Source of the DNA: an uncultured Gammaproteobacteria bacterium | Lineage (GTDB): Bacteria; Pseudomonadota; Gammaproteobacteria; JAKDMP01 | Reading direction: 5' to 3' | DNA length: 64,000 nucleotides | Assembly (NCBI GenBank): GCA_963843735.1 | Contig: CAWJLN010000008.1 | Coordinates: 164,818-228,817 of the forward strand | In this document: positions 44,866-60,094 of the stretch, piece by piece | How positions within the stretch are numbered: position 1 is the stretch's first letter | Layout of the letters: the number at the start of each line of letters is the position of its first letter | Notes under the pieces: generated by a model | What the model was told of the DNA's origin: nothing | Seen by the model: the letters and a program-made list of their open reading frames with translations, nothing else | Database searches by the model: none | Program-made: the position numbers and the translations under genes

Positions 44866-46311
44866 TCAACCTGCGTCGATGAGCCAGCGCCAAACTACCG
44901 CCAACGCTTCCACATCGGCGCGCTGATAGGCGCACGCTCGCGCCAGTGCCTCAGAATCATTCTCCATCCGCCACGCCTGATAATCGCCCCAGGCTTGCTG
45001 TGCGTTCGACCCGTCCGGCCAGCGATAGCCGAAATAGTTCGCCACTGATTTGATGCTGCGGCTGCGCACGGGCAGCATGACCTTCCGCTTGAAGGTCTGG
45101 AGCAGATCGTGCATTCGCGGCTGCAACACGGCGACCGCATCGGCGGGTGCGGTGCTACGCAGGCGCTCCTGCTCAAAGCCGCTCCAGTGATAGACCCGCC
45201 CGTCGAGCCGCTCGGCGGCCTTCGCTACCAAGCGCCAGCCCGCGTCGCTGTCCGGGATGATGAGGATGGCGCGGCCATCGGGCAAGGTCAACGCTTCGCC
45301 GTCGAAATAAGCCGAGACCACCGCCACCCGCACCTGCCCGTCGCCCTCTGACCAGCCGAAGCACCAGGGACGCCCCACCGCATCGCCGGTCATCTCGGTT
45401 TCGATGTCCAGCATCACCCCCGGCGGCAGATCGTCTATGACTTGATCGTCACGCCGGATCGGCTCCTGCTGTTGATGCGCGCGGGCGCTGTCGAGGTAGG
45501 CGCGGGCTTTGGCCGCCCCAACTCCGTCGAACTTCCGCAGTTCCGCCGCCGACAGCGCCAGAACATCGGCCAATGTCCTTATACCGTCTCGCTGGAAATG
45601 CGCCCAGGTCTTGCGCGTCAAATCCGGCAGCAGCGTGATGTCGCCCGCCGCCTCGGCGATCTGCTGGCAAGCGGTGTGCCAGCCGCACTGCTCGCAGTGG
45701 GACGCCAGAAAGATTGGCGGCGCGTCGGCCAGCGCCAGCGTCTCGGCGACCTGCTGGAACGCCCCGAACAGCCACGCTTCGTCGAACTCATGCGTCAGTC
45801 GGCGCAGCGGATAGCCGTCCGCATCCCGCCCCAGCCAAAATTCCCCGGCGACCGGCTCCGGCTGCACCGCTTGCAGCAGCCACAGGTAAAAATCGAGCTG
45901 GAGGCGGTCGGCGGGCTGTACCTGCGCCCGCTGCTTGATCTCGACCGGCACGTACCAGCCGCGACCGGGCACGCGCACCAATCGATCCACCCGCCCACGC
46001 GCCCGCACCGGCGGATCGAGCGGGACAGTGCGTTCCAGCGCGGCATTGCCGATGGCGTCCGCGCCCTGCGCCATCAACTCATGCGTGACCTGCGCCGCTT
46101 CCGCCCAGGAAGTCGTCGTAATGCGCCGCTGGGCACCCGCCGCAAACTGCACGACCTGCTCGTGCGCCAGCCCGGCCATTTGTGCCCAGGATGGCGGCGG
46201 CTCGTGATAGTCGGCGCGCTCGCCATGCTGATCAAGCCAGATGCGCCGCTGGCACTGATCGAGCGCCCGCAGCGTGTAGGCGGTGATGGTCGGCAGCCTG
46301 TCTCCGGTCAT
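44866..46311 (-). CDS. TM0106-type RecB-family nuclease: Cas4-like PD-(D/E)xK domain with four Cys, helix-hairpin-helix, and C-terminal RNase H-like (YprB-type) exonuclease domain
   Basis: 481 aa; N-terminal LRALDQCQRRIWLD (first Cys), catalytic GRVDRLVRV...YVPVEIKQ, Fe-S Cys triad HCEQCGWHTAC; HhH LADVLALSAAELRKFDGVGAAKA; acidic DIETEMTGD of an RNase H-like fold; start overlaps the stop of the upstream STAND gene (ATGA). Confidence 0.7.
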   Translation of the reverse strand: MTGDRLPTITAYTLRALDQCQRRIWLDQHGERADYHEPPPSWAQMAGLAHEQVVQFAAGAQRRITTTSWAEAAQVTHELMAQGADAIGNAALERTVPLDPPVRARGRVDRLVRVPGRGWYVPVEIKQRAQVQPADRLQLDFYLWLLQAVQPEPVAGEFWLGRDADGYPLRRLTHEFDEAWLFGAFQQVAETLALADAPPIFLASHCEQCGWHTACQQIAEAAGDITLLPDLTRKTWAHFQRDGIRTLADVLALSAAELRKFDGVGAAKARAYLDSARAHQQQEPIRRDDQVIDDLPPGVMLDIETEMTGDAVGRPWCFGWSEGDGQVRVAVVSAYFDGEALTLPDGRAILIIPDSDAGWRLVAKAAERLDGRVYHWSGFEQERLRSTAPADAVAVLQPRMHDLLQTFKRKVMLPVRSRSIKSVANYFGYRWPDGSNAQQAWGDYQAWRMENDSEALARACAYQRADVEALAVVWRWLIDAG

Positions 46312-49300
46312 TGATCGAGCGCCGCCAGCACCTCGTCGGCATCGACCTGCCCCCAGTGATAACCCATCGCCGCGCTGTCGCTTTTGGCGCGGCTGGCTTC
46401 GCTGCGCGCCTGATCCTTGTCGCTCGCGCGCAGATGCGCCCAGGCCAGCCCGACCCGGATGTCGGCTTCGTAGATGCGGAAGCCGCCGGCGAGCGCGTAG
46501 CCGAGCACTTCGTTGAGGTCGTTGAAAGCGCTGGCCGGGTCGTTCATGAACCGGGCGTACCAGCGACCGCGCGCCAGCAGCGCCTCGATCAGCACATCAC
46601 GCTGCTGGATGCCGTGGGCGAGGCTGAGCGCCTGATCGTAATGGGCGCGGGCGGAGTCATGATCCCCGGCATCAGCGTCCAGATCGCCCAGCACGCGGTG
46701 ACTGCCGCTGAGATCGCCTTTCCAGCCATTGCGCTCGCAGATAGTCAGGTTGGCCTCGCTGACGCGGCGGGCATAGGCGGCATCCCCGGCGCGGCGCTGA
46801 TGCTCGGCGTGGAAAATACCACGCAGACCGTAAAGGTACTGCTTGTTCGGGTCGATCTTGCGTTCCAGCGCCTCGGCGCGGGCGAATTCAGCGGTGGCTT
46901 CGGCCAGCCCACCGCGCAGGTGCAGCGCACGGGCCAGAGTCGTCCGCGCGTCTCTCTCAGACGTATAGCGAGGGTTTTCATGCATTGTTAACTTGGCTAA
47001 CGCCGCCGCTACGCGCGTTGCTACTCCAGCGCCACGCGCGAGCAACTCCAGCGCCACGCGCGCTACTTCTACGCCCCGGTCGAGCTCGCCAAGGTAGATG
47101 TAGAGCGAGGTAAGGATCAGGTAGTCGATACTACCGTTGAACCAATCATCAGCACTAGCATTGACCTGGATAACACGCTCAATAAATGGCACGGCTGCAC
47201 GCAACCGCCCCAGGCTCATCAGGCACAAGCCGATGGCGCTAAGGATGATGCGCTGGTTGCCGGGACTGCTGACCGCCGGGTCGTGACTCAGGTCGCCACC
47301 AGGGAAGAATTCGGTCATCAGCGCAAGATCCGTCTCCCACGCGCCGAGAGCATAGACGAGTACACCTCGCTGACCCAGATAAATCCGTTTCCTATAGACT
47401 TGCCATGCTTCGTCATACGCTCCAGCATGGCACAGATGATGCACGATCTCGATGTAGGGCGCGAGGTCGTCCAGCGTCGGGAAGCGCGGCAGGCTTTGCT
47501 TGGCGTCGGCCTGATAGTAGTCGGCGATCTGACGGTGGGCGGCGGCGCTGCTGCCGCTTTCCAGCCGCTCGGCGTAGTGCGCCCGGATCAGCGGGTGGGC
47601 GCTGTAGGCGGCAGCGCCGTCCTGCGTCACCCAGCGCGAATCAGGCGGCGCGCGATCAGGCCCGCGACCAGCGCGGCGAAAGCGGCATCGTCCAGCCCGG
47701 TCAGCGGCGCGTTGAGGGCGGTGGCGTCGGTGGCGGTGCGGAACACTTTGCCGAAGGCAGCTTTCGCGCACGGGCAGGCGGAAGGCGCTGAAGATCAGCA
47801 GGAAGGCGCGTTCGGCTGCGCTCAGATGCTCGTCGTAGCGGCGCAGCACCCGCGCCACCCGCTCGTAATGGTCGTCACTCGCCTGCGGTGCGGGCAGGTC
47901 GCCGACGTGCGCCACGTCGCCGCCGAAACGCTCAGCCAGATATGATCCGAGCAGGCTCAAGGTCAGCGCGTGGCCGTCCCAATCGCGCACCACCCGATCC
48001 AGCGCTGCGTCGCTGCCGGTCACGCCGACCCGCCGCAGCAAGTCGCGCCCGTCTGCTTCACTCAGGCGGGTCACGTCGCGCTGGCGATAGGTGGTGTGCG
48101 CCAGCAGATCGACCAGCGGCGCGCGGCTGGTGATCAGGCAGACCGAGTCGTGAAAGGGCGAGGCGAACAAGTCGAGGAAGTCGCGCAGCGCCTCGCTGAT
48201 GATCAGGCCATAATCGTCGCCGGTGTCGTGCTGCATGACCTCGAAGCCGTCCAGCACGAACACGCAGCTCTTGGTGCTCAACAGCCCGGCCAGCAAGCCC
48301 GCCCGCGCTGAGGCCGAGGTCACAGTCTTCGCCAGCGCTGCGCCGCCCAGGTAGGTCAGCGCCGCCTCGAAGAATTCGTCGCTGCTGCGCTGCTCGTAGA
48401 ACGACCACCAGAAGACCGCCGTCGGGCGATTCGATCCGCTGAGGATGGCATCGAGCGCTTTGCGGGCGAGGCTGGTCTTGCCCTCGCCGCCGAAGCCGAT
48501 CAGCCCGGTCACGCGGACGGCGGAGTCGGCGTAGTCAGCGGCGATGCTCGCCAGCAAATCGGCGCGCCCGACCCACTCCGGCAGCACGTCCGGCGCGCGG
48601 CTGAGGTCGAAGGCGGCAGGCGTCGGCGCAGCCTTGACCTGCTGCTGCTGCTGGTCGGTTAAGCGTGGCGTGGTGCTTTCCTGGCGCGGATATGCCTCAT
48701 ACAGTGTCAAACTGAGTGGCACGAGGCTCAGCACCCGCGCGTTGACGCCGAAGGCCGTGTCGCGATCTTTGCTGCTCGCCAGCGGATACCAGGTTTGGGA
48801 GATGAGGCCAACGACAACATTGTTTTCCACATCCAGCACCGCCGCGCCGCTCATCCCTTTATCGATGTCGTCCGATTTCAGTTGCAGTGGTTCGGTCAGC
48901 CAGTTTTCGTCTTCCGGCGCGAAAGTCGAGCCGACGATGACCCCTGAAGCGTAGTTGATCTGGAATTTGTCGAGGCGACGATAGCCCCAACTCTGAAAAC
49001 GGTCACCGTCCGCTTCATCCCCGCTGCCGAGGTGCGCATACTTGCCCGGCTCGACTGGCGATAGACCCGCCGTCAATTCCAGCAGCACGATGTCGTCGTC
49101 ATGGTCAGGCAGGCAGCCCACAACGCGCGCCTCGCGCCGTTTTTCCTCCTCGCGGCGTGCTTGCGGAAAATAAACGCGGATGGTCTGCCCGATGCAGTCG
49201 CGCGGGTGACTCTCGCCATCAATGGCGTTGCGGACGACATGAGCACAGGTCGCAATCTTCCCATCGTCGGAGACAACAACTCCTGTACCGATGATGGCCT

Positions 49301-49370
49301 TGTCCGCGTTGCAGATACCAATGGTGAACTCACGCAACCGCTGGTTGATGACATGCCTATCCTGGCTCAT
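46308..49370 (-). CDS. three-module protein: N-terminal trypsin-like serine protease, central STAND/NB-ARC-type P-loop NTPase, C-terminal TPR/alpha-solenoid repeats (Avs/NLR-like architecture)
   Basis: 1020 aa intact; protease triad candidates TCAHVV (His), DIVLLEL (Asp), GMSGAAV (Ser); Walker A GFGGEGKTSLA and Walker B CVFVLDGFE; winged-helix/arm region and about 350 aa of helical repeats at the C-terminus. Confidence 0.8.
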   Translation of the reverse strand: MSQDRHVINQRLREFTIGICNADKAIIGTGVVVSDDGKIATCAHVVRNAIDGESHPRDCIGQTIRVYFPQARREEEKRREARVVGCLPDHDDDIVLLELTAGLSPVEPGKYAHLGSGDEADGDRFQSWGYRRLDKFQINYASGVIVGSTFAPEDENWLTEPLQLKSDDIDKGMSGAAVLDVENNVVVGLISQTWYPLASSKDRDTAFGVNARVLSLVPLSLTLYEAYPRQESTTPRLTDQQQQQVKAAPTPAAFDLSRAPDVLPEWVGRADLLASIAADYADSAVRVTGLIGFGGEGKTSLARKALDAILSGSNRPTAVFWWSFYEQRSSDEFFEAALTYLGGAALAKTVTSASARAGLLAGLLSTKSCVFVLDGFEVMQHDTGDDYGLIISEALRDFLDLFASPFHDSVCLITSRAPLVDLLAHTTYRQRDVTRLSEADGRDLLRRVGVTGSDAALDRVVRDWDGHALTLSLLGSYLAERFGGDVAHVGDLPAPQASDDHYERVARVLRRYDEHLSAAERAFLLIFSAFRLPVRESCLRQSVPHRHRRHRPQRAADRAGRCRFRRAGRGPDRAPPDSRWVTQDGAAAYSAHPLIRAHYAERLESGSSAAAHRQIADYYQADAKQSLPRFPTLDDLAPYIEIVHHLCHAGAYDEAWQVYRKRIYLGQRGVLVYALGAWETDLALMTEFFPGGDLSHDPAVSSPGNQRIILSAIGLCLMSLGRLRAAVPFIERVIQVNASADDWFNGSIDYLILTSLYIYLGELDRGVEVARVALELLARGAGVATRVAAALAKLTMHENPRYTSERDARTTLARALHLRGGLAEATAEFARAEALERKIDPNKQYLYGLRGIFHAEHQRRAGDAAYARRVSEANLTICERNGWKGDLSGSHRVLGDLDADAGDHDSARAHYDQALSLAHGIQQRDVLIEALLARGRWYARFMNDPASAFNDLNEVLGYALAGGFRIYEADIRVGLAWAHLRASDKDQARSEASRAKSDSAAMGYHWGQVDADEVLAALDQ

Positions 49371-49714
49371 GGCTTGCCCCAGGTCAGTTTGACGGTGATG
49401 GTCGCCTCGGCACTGGTCGTCACCACCGCATCCAAACCGGCATTGAACTTGATGCCGAACTCGACCTCTGCGCCCGAAAGCGACTGCGGGTTGTCGGCGT
49501 CGTGCAGATCGTTGACCAGCATTTCGGTTTTGCGCGCGATTTTGTAGATGGTGTGGAAGGCTTCGAACAGCAGGTCGTCGGAAAGCTGCTTGACGACCTC
49601 CTGCGCTCGTCCGCTGCGTGTAGTTTCCTGCAAGCCGCCTTGCTCGGCAGACGGTTTGGCAGTGATCTCGACCTGGATCGGGCGGTTGTCATCAGTGAAG
49701 TGACGGGCATTCAT
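49367..49714 (-). CDS. small protein (115 aa) translationally coupled to the protease-STAND gene; function unknown
   Basis: Stop overlaps the STAND gene ATG (ATGA); mixed charge, predicted helical (MNARHFTDDNRPIQVEITAKPSAEQGG...); no motif I can name with confidence. Confidence 0.5.
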   Translation of the reverse strand: MNARHFTDDNRPIQVEITAKPSAEQGGLQETTRSGRAQEVVKQLSDDLLFEAFHTIYKIARKTEMLVNDLHDADNPQSLSGAEVEFGIKFNAGLDAVVTTSAEATITVKLTWGKP

Positions 49715-51005: not shown

Positions 51006-51587
51006 ATGACTCAATCCCTCCCGCTCACTAACAGTTCCAAGCTCGCCCTCGTCGATGACGACCTGTTCGATGACTTATCTCGCTATCGCTGGCGGCTCAA
51101 CAGCTACGGCTATGTTGTGCGTTCGTATCGCACCGACGCTGGTCGGAACACCTATGTCTGCCTTCATCGCCAGATCATGAACGCTCAGCACGGTCAATAC
51201 ATTGACCACAGGAACAACGATAAGTTGAACAATGTCCGCGCCAATCTCCGCTTCTGCTCCCAGAGCCAGAACCTCGCCAATCGACGCCTCCACCAGAACA
51301 ACTCCTCCGGCTTCAAAGGCGTGATTTTCCAGCACGGGAAATGGCACGCCCGCATCCAAAAAGACCGCCGTGACCTCCATCTCGGCTTCTACGCCGATCT
51401 CCGCTGTGCCGCTCTCGCCTACGACTGTGCGGCCAAACTGCTCTACGCCGATTTCGCTCGCCTCAATCTCCCCGACTGCCCTACCCCACCCGACATCGAG
51501 GCCAAGGTGCTGCATGTACCTCACCCGCCACGCCGCCACGCTGAGCGTGCGGTTTCATCACTTCCATCACCGCTGTATACAAACTGA
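51006..51587 (+). CDS. HNH endonuclease with AP2-type DNA-binding domain (free-standing homing-endonuclease-like)
   Basis: 193 aa; HNH_3-like YVCLHRQIMNAQHGQYIDHRNNDKLNNVRANLR and AP2 domain SSGFKGVIFQHGKWHARIQKDRRDLHLGFYADLRCAALAYDCAAKLLYADFARLN. Confidence 0.7.
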   Translation: MTQSLPLTNSSKLALVDDDLFDDLSRYRWRLNSYGYVVRSYRTDAGRNTYVCLHRQIMNAQHGQYIDHRNNDKLNNVRANLRFCSQSQNLANRRLHQNNSSGFKGVIFQHGKWHARIQKDRRDLHLGFYADLRCAALAYDCAAKLLYADFARLNLPDCPTPPDIEAKVLHVPHPPRRHAERAVSSLPSPLYTN

Positions 51588-51664
51588 TCGAGCGCATCCA
51601 AAAGGCGGGCAACAAACCTGTTCGTATAGCCTATATCAGTGATTTCGATCCCGCAGGTGCGTCG

Positions 51665-52225
51665 ATGCCGCTGGCCTTCTCCCGCAAGCTCGAATTCATG
51701 CTGGTCAAGTACCTCGGCGATAAGGTCGATGTGCGGCTCAAGCAGATTGCCCTCAATCAGCAGCAGGTCGAGCAGTACGACATCGTGCGCGTCCCGATCA
51801 AGGAGACTGAGCTGCGCGCCGGTCGCTTTGAGGCTACTCATGGTGGCGTGGGCGGTGCCGAGCTGGACGCTCTCGAAGCGCTGCACCCTGGCACCCTGGC
51901 GGCGATGGTCGAGAATTTCTTCGAGGACTACTACAGCCACGATGCTGCCCGCTTCGCCGAACGGCAGGCCCGCGCGCTGCGCCAAGACGTTCAGGAACAG
52001 CTTGAGGCTATCCGCGAGGAATATGCCGAACAGTTCGACGCCCTGAAAGCCGCGCTGGATGAGATGCGCGCTGTGAAGCCAAGCCAGCGCTATACCGTCG
52101 AGGCGTTCAAGGCGGAAGTCGAAGAAACCGACGACTGGCTGTTCGACAGCAGCCGGGACTATTTCGAGCAGCTAAAGTCGTATCAGGCGCACAAGAATGG
52201 GCACAACCTGGCGGACGCCCGATGA
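51665..52225 (+). CDS. hypothetical protein (186 aa), possibly phage-related
   Basis: ATG 51665 with AGGTG RBS; acidic and coiled-coil rich; no recognised domain. Confidence 0.4.
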   Translation: MPLAFSRKLEFMLVKYLGDKVDVRLKQIALNQQQVEQYDIVRVPIKETELRAGRFEATHGGVGGAELDALEALHPGTLAAMVENFFEDYYSHDAARFAERQARALRQDVQEQLEAIREEYAEQFDALKAALDEMRAVKPSQRYTVEAFKAEVEETDDWLFDSSRDYFEQLKSYQAHKNGHNLADAR

Positions 52226-52243: not shown

Positions 52244-53470
52244 TCAGGCAGCGCCCTCCCCTACCCGTTCCAGCCATTCTTCCTTGAGCAGACAGCAAAT
52301 CTCCACTGGCTGCCCGTACACGTCCCCCAGCACCCGCTTGATCAGCCGAGCCAGCCGGTAGCGCAGCAGATCGCGCGCGTAAGCCTGAAAAGCGACCAGC
52401 ACGAAAGTGTGGGTGTCTGGCTCGAAATCGACCAGCACTGCGGGTTGGAGTGCCTGATAGAACGAGCCAGAGTCCATTTGTAGTTGCAGTTGATGAGCCG
52501 CCCACAGCCAGGCGTCCTTCACCGTTTCCCCGGCTTCGCTGAAGCGCGTCCAGGGGATATTCAACCGTTCCGTTGTCGGCAGTGGGGTTTCTTGGACAGT
52601 TTCCGGCGCTTCGTCCAACTCCGTCTCGGTGAATATCGCCCAGGCTTGCGGGTTCGAGGCCGCTGGCGCGGCGGCCACCAACTCGTTTGCCAGCGCCCGG
52701 ACGACATAGTTCCAACTGTGCCCCCGCGGCACGCAGCGGTCGAGGACTTCGCGGACTTGGATTGCTCCCAGCCGGTCAAGCTGTGTCCGTAACAGCGGCT
52801 GAATGCTCTTCTTTAAATGGCCGAAGCGTTTTTCGTAAGTGGCAAATATCTGAAAATCGGAATCATCGTCCGGGTGGAGGGTGGGCTCAGGTTGAGACTG
52901 ATCTTCTGAAATGGATTCTGATGAAGTAGTCTCTGTATCCGTAGAAGACCCTACGCAATGTTCAGTATCCATACCGGGCAATGTTAAGGATCGATCCTTA
53001 ACATTGTTGGGGATCGATCCTTGACATTGTTCAGGATCGCCCTGCCCGAGCAGCCGTTGGATCGTTTCCAGAAAAACGTCGCGGTTGACCCGGTAATGGA
53101 CAGTCGGCGCGCCGGTCTTGTGCGCCTTCTTGACCACCGTTTCGATGCCCAGGTCATGCAGCGTGAACTGCGTCCGTTTGACACGCGGATCGCCCTGTAC
53201 GATGCGGCGCACCTGCGCCTCGCTCAGGCCGAGTTCGGCTTGCCAATCGGCATAGCTTTTGTAGAACCAGCCCTCCGGGTCTTGGGTGCGTTCCGACCAG
53301 TAGAGAATCTGGTTGAGCAGCATGGCGGCCAGATGATCATCGTCGAACAATTTGAGAAACGGTTTGGGGCACACACTGACGGTATTGTCACTGTAGGACT
53401 CGCCGAGCAGCGCTAACACTGCTTTGCGGAAACTAGCGCGGGGTTTGGGGTGTGGTAAAGTCATTTGCAT
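52244..53470 (-). CDS. putative replication initiator (N-terminal winged-helix-like DNA-binding region, acidic Ser/Thr-rich linker, C-terminal DnaD/DnaB_2-like domain)
   Basis: 408 aa; the C-terminal third has the YE..FG...L...W pattern of DnaD-like replisome-organiser domains (ATYEKRFGHLKKSIQPLLRTQLDRLGAIQVREVLDRCVPRGHSWNYVVRAL); the linker coincides with the DNA repeats at 52955-53035. Confidence 0.5.
   Translation of the reverse strand: MQMTLPHPKPRASFRKAVLALLGESYSDNTVSVCPKPFLKLFDDDHLAAMLLNQILYWSERTQDPEGWFYKSYADWQAELGLSEAQVRRIVQGDPRVKRTQFTLHDLGIETVVKKAHKTGAPTVHYRVNRDVFLETIQRLLGQGDPEQCQGSIPNNVKDRSLTLPGMDTEHCVGSSTDTETTSSESISEDQSQPEPTLHPDDDSDFQIFATYEKRFGHLKKSIQPLLRTQLDRLGAIQVREVLDRCVPRGHSWNYVVRALANELVAAAPAASNPQAWAIFTETELDEAPETVQETPLPTTERLNIPWTRFSEAGETVKDAWLWAAHQLQLQMDSGSFYQALQPAVLVDFEPDTHTFVLVAFQAYARDLLRYRLARLIKRVLGDVYGQPVEICCLLKEEWLERVGEGAA
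52955..53035. repeat. iteron-like palindromic repeats inside the replication-initiator coding sequence (candidate origin)
   Basis: caatgttcagtatcc / caatgttaaggatcgatccttaacattgtt (perfect 26-bp palindrome aatgttaaggatc|gatccttaacatt at 52980-53005) / ggggatcgatccttgacattgttcaggatcg; motif (c)aatgt(t/c)aag(g)atc occurs about 4 times in both orientations. Confidence 0.5.
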
Positions 53471-54013
53471 CGATCCTTCAATCGAGTATAAGTGAGACGC
53501 CTGTTCATCGGCGCTGATCGACCAGATCAGCCCACTACCAGGGCATCAGTGCTTGCTCCTACCCAAACAGATCGATGTAATGGGTTGAAAAAAAGGAAAA
53601 TTAAACCTTAGGCTCGCAGGGCTTGCCTTTTTCAGGCATTTACGTTACCATTTGAGGTAACAAAGCCTCGGGCTATTTGCCCTGCGGGCCGCATATACAA
53701 TCTGTAGGGCAAAAGTGGCTTCGTTGCTTGGTCGGCATGTGGAAGCCTCTTTTTGCGTTAGGGTGCTGCACTGTTTCTAAGTGTCCACCATCGACACTGC
53801 TACATAATTCGGCTACATAAATCACTCCTCAAATAAACAGCCCCAAAGGCGGAAAGCTGCCGTTTGTGGCCGATCTTCAGTCCCAAGAAGTCATTCTCAA
53901 AACGGCGTTGGTAGTCATTACTAATCTGATCACCAACGTCTAAAACTATACCCGAAAACGGGCGATTTAAGCAAGCAATTCGATCCTGCCCTACTCGGCC
54001 TCTGGCGATCAGC

Positions 54014-54454
54014 CTAATCGAAAAAGCTGCTGGCATAGTTCTTCAAGAAGTTGTCGGCGACAGTCTTGGCGCTGGCTTTGCTGCTGCCGGTGATGACCAC
54101 GCCCGGCTCATCGCTGGGCGCTGAGTGCATCCGGGGCGCACCTAGTGGCGGCTGGATCGGAACATTGCCTTGTGCCAGCAGCAGCGCTTCCAGGCGGCTG
54201 ATTTGTTCCTGTAGCCGCTGCTCAGTCGGCACGGGAACGGGCTGTAGGGCTTCGCGTACCCAGGGGAATAACTCGAACAAAACCACGGTCTGCCCGGCGC
54301 GCAGGTCGCAAATCAGGCGAATACCGTCACGGATAGTTTTCGCAAATAAGCGTTCTTGTTTCAAAACTTCAATCTGCTCTATCAAAGCGTCTTCTTCTGT
54401 TTTAGTTGTGTCCAACCAAAACATGAACTTAAGTCGGAATCCCTGTTTGGACAT
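54014..54454 (-). CDS. hypothetical protein (about 146 aa from the second Met), divergent from the MerR-like gene
   Basis: ORF 54014..54514; internal start MSKQGFRLKFMFWLDTT... is more plausible; no recognised domain. Confidence 0.3.
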   Translation of the reverse strand: MSKQGFRLKFMFWLDTTKTEEDALIEQIEVLKQERLFAKTIRDGIRLICDLRAGQTVVLFELFPWVREALQPVPVPTEQRLQEQISRLEALLLAQGNVPIQPPLGAPRMHSAPSDEPGVVITGSSKASAKTVADNFLKNYASSFFD

Positions 54455-54590
54455 TTGCGATACTTTCAGTCTAGGCTTACACTTAGTGCAACTGTCACTT
54501 AGTGATAGTAACATAAAATAGGCGTTTATCCAAGCTGATGATCATCGTAGCATTAAACTAGTTTCATTTGGGCTTTGAGTTTACATGGAT

Positions 54591-54865: not shown

Positions 54866-55429
54866 GTGGGTAATTTCCAAATGGCATATACAACCAATGA
54901 CTTGAAAACGTTGTTTAACGTTGCTCCAGAAACAATTCGGAATTGGACGCGAGAGTTTGCTCGCCACTTATCGGTTACGGCTAATCCTGAGAATGGCCGT
55001 ACTCGGATTTACAATGAGGAAGACCTCAAAATTATCGATCTCGTTCATCAGATGCGTGATCAGGGCCATCCTTATGAAGAAATTCATGCTGCGCTGGACG
55101 CAGGGCAGCGTGGAGCAGGCCCAGGCGTATCCCCTGAGGAACTCAAATCGATAGTCACAGGGGAGACTGAACGGCAGCTTTCCCTCGAAATTCAAATGCT
55201 GCGCCGTCAGCTTGCTATTGCGGACGAACGACTTCAGGAACTGGATGCGCTGCGTGAGCAGAATATCCGCCTGGATGCCGAGAAAGAAGCGGAAAAACGT
55301 CGCACTGATGAAATCAGCCTTCGGTTGAATGAGACTCAAGAGAAACTTGAAGCGCTTCTACGGGAGGTTGGACGCGCTTATCACGAGGGTTATATGGATG
55401 CTCTGAAAGAGAGCAAAGATCAAGATTGA
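54866..55429 (+). CDS. MerR-family helix-turn-helix regulator with C-terminal coiled coil
   Basis: 187 aa; N-terminal YTTNDLKTLFNVAPETIRNWTREF (MerR-type HTH) followed by a heptad-rich region (QLSLEIQMLRRQLAIADERLQELDALREQNIRL...). Confidence 0.65.
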   Translation: MGNFQMAYTTNDLKTLFNVAPETIRNWTREFARHLSVTANPENGRTRIYNEEDLKIIDLVHQMRDQGHPYEEIHAALDAGQRGAGPGVSPEELKSIVTGETERQLSLEIQMLRRQLAIADERLQELDALREQNIRLDAEKEAEKRRTDEISLRLNETQEKLEALLREVGRAYHEGYMDALKESKDQD

Positions 55430-55599: not shown

Positions 55600-55905
55600 T
55601 CATAACATGAGTGCACTTGAGAGAGAGAGATTATTGAGAAGTTTCACCAGTTGGACAAAGATGCGCAGCAGCGAGTACGAGCGCTGATTGATCAGGAAGC
55701 AGAAGGCGGGCAGGGCGTCCGCGCTGTCGGGATCATCCACCAGCGAGGCGAAAATCACCGCCCGCGCCGCCACCAACGGTCGCCGCGCCCACCACAGATG
55801 CAGCGTGGACGGATGCCCGTGCCGGATGGATTTCTCGCGGGCGCTGGCGACATCGATCGCTTCCAGCGGCAGCGCGACTTCGATCAGCTTTTTACGAGTG
55901 GTCAT
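55600..55905 (-). pseudogene. N-terminal fragment (about 100 aa) of a DUF1156-family protein (putative defence-associated methyltransferase); body of the gene missing
   Basis: [59 protein letters not shown] is the conserved DUF1156 N-terminus; similarity decays after about 65 aa and the ORF stops at 55600, whereas full-length members are several hundred aa longer. Confidence 0.55.
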
Positions 55906-56348
55906 GAGGCGTTTTCCGGTGAAACTAGGGTAATTTGGTCATTAAAACGTTTGAGGTCGGCTGTATTCAGGGTCAATAGGGTGTCGATGCCGTATACCAG
56001 CATGGTCGCGACGATGTTGGTGTCATGCACCTGCTTGCCCGCCGTCGGATAGGTTTTCAGGAGTTCCAGTAATTTGACACGCACAGCGACGGTTTCGTCG
56101 GCAATCTGAAACAGCGGCGTGATTTTGTTGATTTCATCGACCACTTCCCCCATCGTCAGCGGTATTTTGAGCGTTTTCGGATGCGTCGCTTGCACCATAA
56201 ATTCGCGGATGACCTGCCCATTGATCCACAGTTCGGTATTTTCGCGCAGCATTCGCCGGAACAGGGTGTCACATTCGGCGTGCAGGTTCATATCGGTGAA
56301 GACCGTGCGCAGCAAAATATTGGTATCGACAAAGGCTTTAACGGCCAT
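55902..56348 (-). CDS. vapC: PIN-domain ribonuclease toxin VapC
   Basis: Start at [13 protein letters not shown] (Met 15 of ORF 55902..56390); PIN acidic residues (D in VDTN, E in ...HAECD..., D in VHDTN...). Confidence 0.8.
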
Positions 56349-56568
56349 CGTCGTCGTACCAATCCTCACGGCGCACCGAAGGCGCTTCATTCATCGGATT
56401 ACTCAGCGTCGCCGCGTCCAGCAGTTGCAATTTTTCATCGACGGTCAGCGGGCGCTGTTCGGCACGGCGTGCCAGCACCCGAACAATCAGGGTCTTTTGT
56501 TGCTCTTCTGGGAGCTGCTCAACCAGTTCAATCAGTTGCTCGTAGTCAATTTTCAACTGCACAGCCAT
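56338..56568 (-). CDS. vapB: VapB-type antitoxin (small DNA-binding protein)
   Basis: 76 aa; overlaps the vapC start by 11 nt; typical toxin-antitoxin gene organisation. Confidence 0.55.
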   Translation of the reverse strand: MAVQLKIDYEQLIELVEQLPEEQQKTLIVRVLARRAEQRPLTVDEKLQLLDAATLSNPMNEAPSVRREDWYDDDGR

Positions 56569-59500
56569 TATCGTGGCTCCTCGCTCATTGCCAGTAGGTC
56601 ACCTAGATTATAGTTCACGCTGGTCACATTCAAGTCGGGTTCGCGGCTGAACGGTTGGCGCACATACCGCGCCGGACGCGCCGCCTGTCCCTCAATCTCC
56701 ACCAGCGCCAGGATAAACTGCTCTTGAGTATTGAACGCCGTCAAAATCTCGTTGCGCGTCACTGTGACGGTATGCGCATCCGGCGCGCCGCCCCTTCACC
56801 TCGATGAAGCGCAGCCGCCCACTGCGCCCGTCGCGGCTCTCAATGTCATAGCCGATCTTCGCGCCGCTCACATCGCGCGGATCATTCCCCAGCGCGATCT
56901 CAGCTTCCGTCACCGCCCGCATGGCGATCTGCTCCGTGATGCGAGTGTCCAGAGTTGCTGCTAATCCGTCACTATCCGTCACTAGCCCGATGGGGACGAT
57001 CAGCGCCCCACCCATGATGGTTGGCGGCGCGGCGGTGATTTGCCGCTCCTGCTCAAGCTGGATTTTGCGCTGCTTCAGCCGCTCGGCCAGCCGATCCGCC
57101 CGTTCCTGCGCCCGCCCGGAATTGAGCTTGGCGTTAGGCTTGCCTGCTTGTTCCTGCGCCCGTAGTTCGCCTGCGCGGAAGTCCCAGTAGTTGATTTCTT
57201 TGGTCAGCCGCTCCTGCACCGCCGCCTCAATTTTGGCAATCAGTTCCAGCCGCCGCTGGCGTACCCGCTCCAAGTGCGGCGGCACCAGTTGCTCAATGGC
57301 GTAGGCTGTCGCCTGCCGTTCTAACGCCGTCCCCTTCAGCCAGTCCCGTTCCAATACCGGACGCAGCAGAGCGATTTCTTCGGCAGTTGCCGGTCGGTAG
57401 TCGAGATAGAGTGCGCCCCCGCCCGCTCGCACTTTTCCCTCGGCATCAATCTCCACAAAATGCACCTCCCGCGAGATGATTCTTCTCTCAAAACCGGGGG
57501 TTGGCGCTGCATCCCGGATGGCTTGTTCCAGGTAGAACAGGGCGCGGGGCTGGTCGCCTGCGTCCGTCTCATCGATCAGGATAGCACCTTGTTGCAGCAC
57601 GTCCCGGAATCGTTCTAGCAGCAGCCCAATGGTCGCATCGAGCAGGGGATGACCAGGGCAGATAAAGGCCGCAGGCGGCAGGTTCAACTGGTTGATCAGG
57701 GATTTCTCAAAACAGATACGCTCATACCGGGTGCTGATCGCGCCCAAACCGCGCTCTTTAGCCCAGTGGCGAATGCTGGCTGGGACGTTGTGGATGGCGT
57801 AGCGCCCGCTCTCGCGCTCATAGATTGTGCCGCCAAGCTGCTCGAAAGCTTGCAGGAAAAATGCTTTGATGTAGTAGGGCTGCAAACGCCGGGCAGAAGC
57901 GCGCTCCATCTCCTCGCGGATACGAATAATCTGGCTCACATCGAGCTGCGTTTGTACCAGCGATTCCCGTTCAAGCAGGTCGCGTACATGTTCCCGATCC
58001 ATAACATTGTCAACCACCTGCTCCAGGCGCGCCCGGATGGCTGGATCATTGCCATAACGCACTGCTTCTACCAACAGCTTGCGCAGCGATGTTTCCTGAA
58101 ACAGCTTGCCCAATACATCGAACACCTGCCCATCGAGGGCATGACGCTCGGCTTCCAATTTCTTCAAGAGCCGCTGGTAAACGCCGCCTTCACGCGTTTC
58201 GCCTGCTACCAGATTCCAGAGATGGCAAATCTCAGTCTGCCCAATCCGGTGAATCCGCCCGAAACGTTGTTCCAGTCGGTTGGGATTCCAAGGTAGGTCA
58301 TAGTTGACCATCAGATGAGCGCGCTGAAGATTGATACCTTCGCCAGCGGCATCCGTTGCCAGCAGGATGAATACCTCCGGGTCGTTGCGGAATTGATCTT
58401 CGATCCGACGACGTTCGTCACGTGGTACGCCACCATGAATGCAGACAATCGGTTCGGTTCGACCGAGCAGGGTGGTCAGCCGTTCCCGCAGATAATTGAG
58501 CGTATCGCGATGTTCGGTGAAAATTACCAGTTTGCGCAGCCCTTGAATGGGATCGCGCATTTCTGGAGTGTCTTGCAGCAAACGGAGTAACTCGTTCCAC
58601 TTTCGATCCGTACCACTTCGTCTTAACTGAAGTGCCTGCTGCTCCAGCGTTCGTAAACTGGTAATTTCCGCTTGTAGTTCGGTGATGGTTCGGGCAGCGG
58701 TCGCGCTGTCCACGAGTTCCATCTCAACTGCCTCGACTTCAGCATCGGGAGCATCGTCTATATCATCCCAGTAATCTTCATCCAGAACGGGATATTCAGT
58801 GAGGGGCAGTTCGCGGCTGTGTTGAACATCTTTTAAGCGTTTTTCGAGCCGTTCTTTCCACCGCTTGAGCGATTGGTAAATGGCTTCTGGGGAGGAAGCT
58901 AACCGTCGTTGCAAAACGGTCAAGGCAAAGCCGATAGTACCTTTGCGGCCATCGTTTTCAAGTTGATCAGCCCGGTTAAACTCTTCCCGCACATAATCCG
59001 TAACAGCCTCGTAGAGAACCGCCTCTTCGGAGGAGGGGGCATGGTTGACGGTATAAGCTCGGCGTTCCGGGAACAGCGGCTTACCATCGAATTTGAGCAG
59101 TTTCTCCTTGACCATTCGACGCATTAAGTCGGAGACATCCACCCGATGAACTCCATCCCGGAACCGGCCTTCAAATCGATCTGCGTCGAGCAGAGCCAGA
59201 AAAAGCTGAAAAATCTTCTTCTTTGCCATTGTGGGGCGTGGCAGTCATCAGCAGCAGGTGGCGAGTGAGAGTCCCCAGTAATTTGCCCAGCTTGTAGCGT
59301 TTCGTCTCTTTCAGTTCGCCGCCAAAGAAGGAGGCCGATAACTTGTGGGCTTCGTCACACACCACTAAATCCCAATCAGTTGCTTGCAGACGGGTTTGCA
59401 AATCTTCGCTGAGGCTGACCTGATCCAGGCGGACGATAAGCTGGTCATATTCGGCGAAGGGATTACCACTGCGGGCCGTCTCCGCCATTTCCCGGCTGAG

Positions 59501-60094
59501 AATCTTGAAGTCGAGTTGGAATTTAGTCCATAGCTCGTCCTGCCATTGTTCCGTCAGGTTGCCTGGAGCGCAGATCAAACAGCGCTTCACATCTCCCCGA
59601 ACGATCAACTCACGGATCAGCAGCCCGGCCATGATCGTTTTCCCAGCACCGGGATCATCGGCCAACAGATAACGCAGTGGTTGGCGTGTGAGCATCTCAT
59701 CGTAGACAGCTGTGATCTGATGGGGGAGGGGTTCGATCAAGGAAGTGTGGACAGCCAGCAAAGGATCGAAGAGGTGAGCCAAGTGAATCCGATAGGCTTC
59801 CGACACAAGGCGTAGAAGCGCGCCGTCCGCGCTGAAAGCCCAACGCCGTTCGTTGGTGACAATTTCGAGCAGCGGCTCATCGCTGCGGTAGACGAGCTGT
59901 GAGCCGAGTTGCCCATCAGCACGCTTGAAAATGACTTCGACGGCAGTCGCGCCATGCTGTTGCGCATCAATCAAAGTCACAGTTTGCTGGGGGACGAGGC
60001 CACGAACCTGAATGCCACGTTGTAAATCTTCGAGTTTAATCATTTGAGGGTTCAGTAGATCAAGTAATGCCAACCTGAAAATAGCTATGTACAA
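56568..60094 (-). pseudogene. SNF2-family helicase with C-terminal DUF3883-like (restriction-endonuclease-like) domain; at least two frameshifts
   Basis: N-terminal part (ORF 59171..60094) has DEXH helicase motifs DDPGAGKT, DEAHK, TATPHNG. Middle/C part (ORF 56692..59229) has HELICc motifs (LLATDAAGEGINLQ, NYDLPWNPNRLEQRFGRIHRIGQ) and ...GYDIESRDGRSGRLRFIEVKG. The tail continues in the frame of ORF 56568..56762 (TVTRNEILTAFNTQEQFILALVEIEGQA). Frameshift 1 is in an A5/T5 run at about 59,209-59,215; frameshift 2 at about 56,775-56,795. Confidence 0.75.

Follow-up and report, generated by a model that had tools for sequence, protein, structure and literature searches.

A candidate iteron-type replication origin embedded in the initiator gene of a module of plasmid or phage ancestry

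This report concerns a 64-kb stretch of metagenomic DNA (hereafter the window: positions 164,818 to 228,817 of contig CAWJLN010000008.1, numbered from its first nucleotide) and, within it, the minus-strand gene at 52244..53470, called rep here, whose product Rep comprises 408 amino acids (aa) from the first ATG or 406 aa from the probable start at 53464. From sequence comparison and from analogy with characterized replicons, the locus is likely the heart of a theta replicon of the iteron type that descends from a plasmid or phage and carries its origin inside the initiator gene. In the mechanism that we propose, dimers of the winged-helix N-terminal domain of Rep (~aa 11-143) would bind four iterons that run from 53038 to 52947, the nucleoprotein complex would melt an adjoining guanine-cytosine (GC)-poor tract from 52946 to ~52800, and the C-terminal part of the protein, which is DnaD-like plus DnaA-domain-I/DciA-like, would recruit the host replicative helicase and primosome. 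The tract starts with a conserved motif, ACAGAGACTACT, that probably functions as single-stranded DNA. Iterons and unwinding tract alike would be tolerated inside a gene by virtue of encoding only a disordered linker of a presumably dispensable type, and Rep expression is probably controlled post-transcriptionally by a long structured leader that would sequester the ribosome-binding site.

The iteron array in rep and its conservation

The iteron array (52947..53038, minus strand) encodes aa 145-175 and consists of four tandem 23-bp dyad-symmetric units: unit 0 at 53038-53016 (GATCCTGAACAATGTCAAGGATC), unit 1 at 53015-52993 (GATCCCCAACAATGTTAAGGATC), unit 2 at 52992-52970 (GATCCTTAACATTGCCCGGTATG), and unit 3 at 52969-52947 (GATACTGAACATTGCGTAGGGTC), all on the minus strand. 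A preliminary description of this DNA, made from the sequence alone, had counted about four copies in both orientations; the repeats are real, and the orientations resolve, when viewed on the coding strand, into units that stand head-to-tail with internal dyad symmetry in each. The perfect palindrome that it gave as 26 bp long measures 28 bp and spans 52979-53006 within the array. Tandem Repeats Finder (TRF) returned a period of 23, 2.5 copies, and 85% matches at the array. With up to three mismatches allowed, the half-site CAATGTTAAGGATC has nine matches in the 64 kb, six of them at 52956-53038, compared with an expectation of 2.4 per 64-kb window, and none of 100 shuffles reached nine. A period that 3 does not divide spreads the units over all three reading frames: units 0 and 3 share a frame (giving the peptides DPEQC and DTEHC), and units 1 and 2 lie in the other two.

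A collection of 5.8 billion proteins contained 28 homologues of Rep, the named ones of which come from metagenome-assembled genomes (MAGs) of Chloroflexota. Loci with 41-57% aa identity were set in a 23-bp register (L001, L002, L005-L012, L014-L016, L033, and L034; L012 is frameshifted), and the four-unit array was found in register and at the same gene position in all 14 homologous loci examined. A matrix of 10 non-redundant loci by four units yielded the consensus GATCCTnAACAATGTnnGGnATC, whose information is concentrated at the symmetric positions A2/T22, C5/G19, C10/G14, and A11/T13, a pattern to be expected if the protein that binds this DNA is a dimer. At a lag of 23, the 92-bp segment had a mean self-identity of 0.60, versus a background of 0.256 ± 0.05 in other 92-bp windows of the same genes, and every other lag from 15 to 35 was at background. 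Codon identity at identical residues was 0.75-0.86 over aa 141-182 and 0.66-0.71 in the linker on to ~aa 202, compared with 0.5-0.6 in the N-domain and 0.36-0.5 in the C-terminal half; amino-acid identity, by comparison, is lower in the linker (0.31-0.59) than in the N-domain (~0.6-0.85). Read across these loci, the codon pattern marks a second constraint, at the level of DNA, that overlaps the coding one and covers both the iterons and the adjoining tract. Because the array is conserved in the same place, has a self-identity peak at lag 23 only, and holds its synonymous codons frozen, it is a conserved DNA element and no peptide repeat. A peptide-repeat explanation was considered and is ruled out by the occupation of three frames and by the frozen synonymous sites; the preliminary description had already set it aside on account of differing frames and orientations.

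One could suppose that the palindromes act as hairpins in the mRNA, through ribosome pausing or attenuation, or that they make up a recombination site of the dif or res kind. The perfect 28-bp palindrome could indeed form strong mRNA hairpins, but specific bases and a strict 23-bp period over four units are conserved, beyond what complementarity would demand, and no conserved recombinase gene stands beside the module. The array moreover coincides with an initiator family whose relatives include proven in-gene origins (PMC5703833, PMC6316719), and we regard either of these roles as extremely improbable.

Two further observations concern the iteron sequence. Five GATC sites lie within 46 bp (52993-53038), where they occur in the form GGATCGATCC at the junctions between units; the iteron consensus accounts for them, and they would be relevant if the host methylates GATC. 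An extra half-site with one mismatch, CAATGTTATGGATC, occurs at 57996-58009 (minus strand), in a helicase gene ~5 kb away from the array, with GGGAACATGT after it. About 0.02 such matches would be expected by chance; the half-site is possibly a secondary Rep site, or else a coincidence.

The initiator protein, the GC-poor tract, and the leader

The third codon of the reading frame, the ATG at 53464, is the likely start of Rep, because an AAGGA Shine-Dalgarno sequence (53474..53478, minus strand) lies 9 nucleotides (nt) upstream of it and because the database protein P0001, which is identical to the window Rep, has 406 residues. This Shine-Dalgarno sequence also accounts for a match to the 10-mer ATCGATCCTT at 53469-53478; an operator at the start codon was considered for this match and rejected, as it is essentially the conserved Shine-Dalgarno AAGGAT. 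As modeled by AlphaFold from an alignment of 21 sequences, Rep comprises a folded N-domain of winged-helix type (aa 11-143), a disordered linker (aa 144-202) with a predicted local distance difference test (pLDDT) score of ~30, a helical domain (~aa 203-265), a second linker (aa 266-293), and a folded C-terminal domain (~aa 300-408). Together, the iteron array and the GC-poor tract encode exactly the disordered stretch of aa 144-202, and this bears out the earlier placement of an iteron-like array in the initiator's own linker-coding DNA.

The identification of the gene as a replication initiator, likewise made in the preliminary description, is upheld by several lines of homology. In PHROGs, Rep matches phrog_9773 ('replication initiation O-like', 1.2e-22, aa 36-192) and phrog_6493 ('DnaD-like helicase loader', 1.2e-19, aa 32-260). 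Searches with tblastn found ~35% identity to staphylococcal phage replication proteins (34-38% over ~aa 11-173 for the Staphylococcus phages phiMR11, 37, and X2 and for phage SU1, with E ~1e-16) and 30% identity over Rep aa 25-255 to a 'DnaD domain protein' of a Bacillus plasmid. Foldseek against viral models retrieved phage replication initiators and replisome organizers (E ~1e-5), and the BFVD fold matches to O proteins were marginal (E 0.1-0.2). By these homologies, the window gene encodes a replication initiator, and Rep belongs to the PHROG families of phage replisome organizers and DnaD-like initiators. The window Rep has no significant match in Pfam (none at E ≤ 1) or NCBIfam, and neither it nor any of 21 family members matches Pfam Phage_rep_O (PF04492) or RepA_N (PF06970); among these 21, DnaA_N is the sole Pfam family found at a meaningful level. 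The likeness to lambda O that had been proposed for this gene stands for the in-gene iterons and the GC-poor tract and does not extend to membership of Phage_rep_O.

For the C terminus, a DnaD/DnaB_2-like domain had been proposed, and we find a DnaA-domain-I-like one instead. The family profile matches domain I of Bacillus subtilis DnaA (PDB 4tps_B, E 7e-7), and Pfam DnaA_N (PF11638) is matched at E ≤ 1 by 12 of the 21 family members, two of which exceed the gathering cut-off of 24.6 (P0011 with 27.4 bits and P0023 with 28.1 bits), the window Rep alone falling below the Pfam threshold. In Foldseek, the C-terminal ~80 aa of the model superpose on 4tps with a template-modeling (TM) score of 0.84-0.87, a root-mean-square deviation of 1.3 Å, and 23% identity, and the next match is DciA, a helicase partner. 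By profile and by fold, the domain is DnaA-domain-I-like and not DnaD-like; a DnaD-like character of the helical middle domain (~aa 203-265) is weakly indicated. When the C-terminal half was compared with 1.84 billion cluster representatives, 191 proteins were returned at E ≤ 0.001, most of them 350-450 aa long with the match at their C-terminal end and a few being DnaA itself; on this distribution, the proteins that share the C-terminal half of Rep are a real, small, uncharacterized family. Both domain I of DnaA and DciA are known to make contact with the replicative helicase or with proteins accessory to it (PMC5448010).

Beside the repeats, where the preliminary description had proposed to seek an AT-rich element, the GC-poor tract (52799..52946, minus strand) directly follows the iterons on their 3' side in coding sense, and it is a candidate DNA-unwinding element (DUE). 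The acidic portion of the linker, rich in Ser/Thr, is encoded here, and the tract contains the two lowest-GC 40-bp windows of rep (52899-52938 and 52824-52863, each at 35% GC in a gene of ~60%); the GC dip of 0.37-0.43 at +90 to +150, just past the array, is conserved over 10 loci. Ten nucleotides past unit 3 lies the conserved 12-mer ACAGAGACTACT (52925..52936, minus strand), a candidate single-strand or unwinding motif. The related 11-mer ACAGAGAYTAC, with up to one mismatch, has its sole match in the 64-kb window at 52926-52936, beside the iterons, and a degenerate form of the motif (CCAGAGACT / CAAAGAYT) occurs in the close Chloroflexota family. There is precedent for a single-strand role, as TrfA and RepE bind specific single-stranded DNA in plasmid DUEs (PMC4081077).

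The same arrangement was found well outside the close family. Distant relatives of the N-domain (L017, L018, L019, L023, L026, L036, and L038; ~24-43% identity), drawn from metagenomes and IMG/VR, carry tandem arrays of 23/24 bp right at the end of the part that codes for the N-domain. Directly past the iterons, distant relatives have one to three tandem copies of the 12-mer ACAGAGAYTACW (L018 5565-5588, L019 3219-3242, L025 2840-2875, L040 1915-1938, L041 1903-1938, and L042 3370-3393); TRF reported two to three copies directly past the array in L018, L019, L026, and L036, and L017 has a copy with one mismatch. Among annotated replicons, orf16 of Staphylococcus phage phiMR11 contains an in-gene array of 23 bp × 3.2 copies, gp16 of phage SU1 one of 23 bp × 4 copies plus 12 bp × 3.2 copies, and the DnaD-domain gene of a Bacillus toyonensis plasmid one of 23 bp × 2.8 copies plus 12 bp × 2.8 copies. 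With up to one mismatch, ACAGAGAYTAC occurs on the sense strand at this post-array position in loci and hosts that range from 30 to 69% GC, and because it recurs with a 13-bp period in L021/L022, the constraint on the 12-mer acts on DNA, and a mere peptide repeat is excluded. Across the loci compared, the 23/24-bp iteron array is common to a broad superfamily of phage and plasmid initiators, most members of which also have ACAGAGAYTAC, and the 12-mer is possibly a superfamily-wide single-strand recognition element of the unwinding region. Such sharing of array and motif would permit origins to be predicted straight from sequence.

Upstream of rep, the ~520-600 bp that separate it from the preceding gene are conserved at the DNA level across loci in which Rep is only ~50% identical, and they include a conserved, apparently structured leader RNA of ~325 nt (53476..53800, minus strand) with counterparts in L001 (7645-7995), L002 (7655-7995), L005 (9672-9994), and L034 (9665-9995). 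In a MAFFT alignment of the last ~325 nt of 13 sequences, which are few and related, eight being from one MAG, and from which the structure itself was derived, a multi-branched fold of 83 pairs has 89% of its cells paired versus 35-45% in registers slid by 1-3 columns, and 14 pairs changed on both sides versus 4-9 in the slid registers. One hairpin contains five covarying pairs (arms GGTGTC / GATACC / GATATC / GGCATC), and a small 3' hairpin is predicted to sequester the Shine-Dalgarno sequence. The G-U cells number 99 and the A-C cells 25, which favors the rep-sense strand; RNAalifold energies of the two strands (-116.9 vs -120.3) do not discriminate between them. Rfam, searched over 49-57 kb, gave no match to the leader and only two sub-threshold chance matches. 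At the 5' edge of the leader, at ~53830-53870 (minus strand), a terminator-like hairpin is followed by a conserved mini-open-reading-frame motif, namely a Shine-Dalgarno-like AGGAG, 5-7 nt, and an ATG with an immediate stop (ATGTAA/ATGTAG), which occurs at aligned positions in L001, L002, L005, L007, and L034 and is a candidate start-stop mini-open reading frame or promoter element. Most simply, the leader is probably a translational or copy-control element of rep, by analogy with pSK41, the rep leader of which is targeted by RNAI (PMC5703833), and it is a candidate for a new regulatory RNA of this replicon family.

Genomic setting of the module

In relatives, the module is ordered as a divergent MerR-like gene, a gene of 140-166 aa, a ParM-like gene, a ribbon-helix-helix (RHH) gene, ~520 bp of non-coding DNA, and rep. 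The ParM-like actin has 381-387 aa (PDB 4xhp ParM, E 3e-6; phrog_691, 1e-9), and the ParR-like gene encodes a CopG/Arc-like RHH protein of 64-68 aa; the cassette, which most relatives have, is present in L002, L005-L007, L011, L012, and L034. The window copy, like L001 and L033, has no ParM/ParR pair and keeps the rest of the module, including a conserved 166-aa gene with no assigned function (54014..54514, minus strand), which in relatives (36-54% identity) always opens the operon on the rep side, and a divergent gene for a MerR-type helix-turn-helix and coiled-coil protein (54866..55429, plus strand), the position of which is conserved in relatives. GC content is 0.50-0.58 from ~49 kb to the window end, beyond which this low-GC island extends, versus 0.60-0.68 at 1-49 kb, where the genes kdpA/kdpB, kdpD, and a response-regulator gene are found. 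Judged by the partition genes of the relatives and by the lack of phage structural genes among those seen, the backbone looks plasmid-like. The window copy itself is probably integrated or degenerate, because it has no ParM/ParR and sits in a low-GC island by chromosomal-looking genes.

The partition cassette raises the question of whether the array is only a ParR-like centromere, an autoregulatory operator, or a site for copy control or incompatibility, all of which we consider very unlikely. Tandem repeats on a 20-bp scale are typical of type II centromeres too, and iterons often double in copy control, yet the array is unchanged in the window, L001, and L033 despite the loss of ParM/ParR, and it always lies at the boundary of N-domain and linker, even in phage relatives whose examined stretches show no par genes. 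It is always followed by the GC-poor tract and the 12-mer, and an operator would be expected at the promoter and not 430 nt into the gene.

The preliminary description had seen here a prophage or phage-like island, and an integrated lambdoid-style temperate phage whose replication module would be this gene and its internal origin has some points in its favor. The nearest annotated relatives of the N-domain are phage replication proteins, the locus lies in the low-GC island, and next door, at 51006-52225 (plus strand) and convergent with rep, are an HNH endonuclease gene (phrog_99, 3e-30) and then an open reading frame (ORF) of 186 aa (51665-52225) whose match to a phage 'DNA topoisomerase' PHROG (7.6e-9) is confined to the C-terminal third of that PHROG. 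The ORFs scanned (36.5-63.9 kb), however, included no gene for capsid, tail, terminase, lysis, or integrase, and no tRNA was found within the 64-kb window; 50,697 phage records and the plasmid collection yielded no near match, and IMG/VR holds only distant N-domain relatives with 24-33% identity. The relatives, for their part, carry the ParM/ParR-like cassette upstream of rep along with PIN toxin genes, a plasmid-type maintenance set. We therefore judge a prophage origin of the module to be unlikely, with a plasmid-prophage of the N15/P1 type being possible.

Several findings weigh against the reading of the locus as the core of an iteron-type replicon. The GC-poor tract is only ~60-65% A+T, and the upstream intergenic region is more AT-rich (53565-53604 at 28% GC). 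No DnaA box occurs within several kb, leaving an involvement of host DnaA unsupported, and no replicon-scale switch in GC skew is seen at the locus. Helicase recruitment by the C-terminal domain is deduced from a predicted fold. The window copy may be inactive, since it has no partition genes and gene fragments lie on either side of it. Lastly, the MAG CAWFCF01 (an uncultured member of Chloroflexia) contains eight ParM-ParR-leader-rep modules on eight contigs (L005-L012) with 76-98% DNA identity, and eight copies with similar iterons in one MAG are hard to square with eight compatible autonomous plasmids. Most pairs of these copies are homologous over only ~1.3-4.8 kb around the module, three pairs over 4.5-8.6 kb, with differing flanks, and L006, L011, and L012 have frameshifts. 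Integrated copies, strain mixtures, a mobile cassette, or many replicons could account for this set, and the data suggest the first three.

No loader or helicase gene was identified beside rep in the relatives' loci, and in the window the downstream gene is convergent (51665-52225, plus strand). Beyond the iteron-type replicon itself, it is conceivable, as a speculative extension drawn from these features, that Rep represents an undescribed class of self-sufficient initiator. Its fusion of an iteron-binding winged-helix domain with a DnaD-like and a DnaA-domain-I/DciA-like domain would recruit host DnaB and load it directly, without DnaA or a phage or plasmid loader; ACAGAGAYTAC would serve the whole superfamily as the single-strand recognition element of its unwinding region, and the leader would be a new copy-control RNA. 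If this were true, such an initiator would suit hosts with DciA-type helicase loading and would offer the first usable minimal replicon for Chloroflexota.

The remaining neighbors of the module were recorded as follows. An active origin of the whole contig was considered at this locus and is unsupported, as the cumulative GC skew rises over 1-44 kb and dips only locally. Downstream of rep, L002-L004 have an HNH gene unrelated to that of the window. The module is bordered by PIN-domain genes in the window (55902-56390), L001, and L033, and these genes are non-orthologous. There is apparent gene decay beside the module at 55600-60094, where a DUF1156 fragment of 101 aa occurs and an SNF2/ResIII helicase is broken into two ORFs, one at 59171-60094 and another, which has Helicase_C and NOV_C, at 56692-59229, and the higher-coordinate side also has Uma2, a methyltransferase fragment, and a glycosyltransferase. 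On the other side, 44866-49714 (minus strand) is a defense-like cluster in which 44866-46311 encodes a PD-(D/E)XK/Cas4-like plus RNase_H_2 nuclease, 46308-49370 a trypsin-like protease-STAND NTPase-TPR protein of 1020 aa, and 49367-49714 a Trypco1 protein.

Comparison with known systems

The placement of an origin in the DNA that encodes the linker of its own initiator is a textbook principle, familiar from lambda, SPP1, and pSK41, and because this principle is classical, our core finding, though solid, is confirmatory and not surprising. In the RepA_N plasmid pSK41 of Firmicutes, four Rep boxes lie centrally in rep, the linker that they encode is dispensable, and the C-terminal domain (CTD) is host-specific (PMC5703833). 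The window locus shares with pSK41 an N-terminal DnaD-like winged-helix domain, four semi-palindromic boxes in the middle of rep, an origin-encoded linker with a separate C-terminal domain for host interaction (a predicted role here), an adjacent type II ParM/ParR system (here in relatives), and, probably, RNA-level control on a long rep leader (PMC5703833, PMC7145576). It differs in that the CTD of pSK41 Rep binds DnaG, whereas the C-terminal region here is DnaD-like plus DnaA-domain-I-like, and also in having no Pfam RepA_N match, Chloroflexota hosts, and a period of 23 with an ACAWTGT core.

In lambda O, iteron binding falls to the N-domain and recruitment of the helicase machinery to the C-domain, and, as here, four dyad-symmetric iterons and an AT-rich tract lie mid-gene in linker-coding DNA (PMC7466680). 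The window locus departs from lambda in the absence of a Phage_rep_O match and of a P-like loader gene downstream, and in its plasmid-like context. Among the replisome organizers of Firmicute phages, oriL of SPP1 lies within gene 38, which encodes G38P (PMC6316719), and the same has been proposed for ORF20 of 80alpha (PMC5499656). With these organizers, Rep has in common an in-gene origin and an N-domain homologous to that of phiMR11 orf16 (~35%), and phiMR11 orf16 and SU1 gp16 have the same 23-bp array followed by ACAGAGAYTAC repeats. The phage proteins, however, are ~255-270 aa long and are followed by loader or helicase genes, whereas the window Rep has 408 aa, no such neighbor, and an extra DnaA-domain-I-like domain. 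The C-terminal ~80 aa of Rep share their fold with DnaA domain I and resemble the N-terminal KH-like domain of DciA; unlike DnaA, Rep carries this domain at the end of what would be an iteron-binding initiator, without AAA+ or DnaA-box-binding domains.

The closest analogues are pSK41 RepA_N, SPP1 G38P, and the staphylococcal phage replisome organizers, and a literature search turned up no characterized iteron replicon for Chloroflexota. What is new is limited to the DnaA-domain-I-like fusion, the Chloroflexota range with a ParM/ParR backbone, the leader RNA, and the recognition of superfamily-wide 23/24-bp iterons, for the most part accompanied by ACAGAGAYTAC. The locus provides, base by base, a candidate minimal replicon for Chloroflexota, made up of rep, iterons, unwinding tract, and leader, in which the conserved structured leader points to a probable control element. 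The pairing of a phage-organizer N-domain with a DnaA-domain-I-like C-terminal domain is an uncharacterized combination among initiators, and it offers a testable idea of how a helicase might be recruited without a loader gene.

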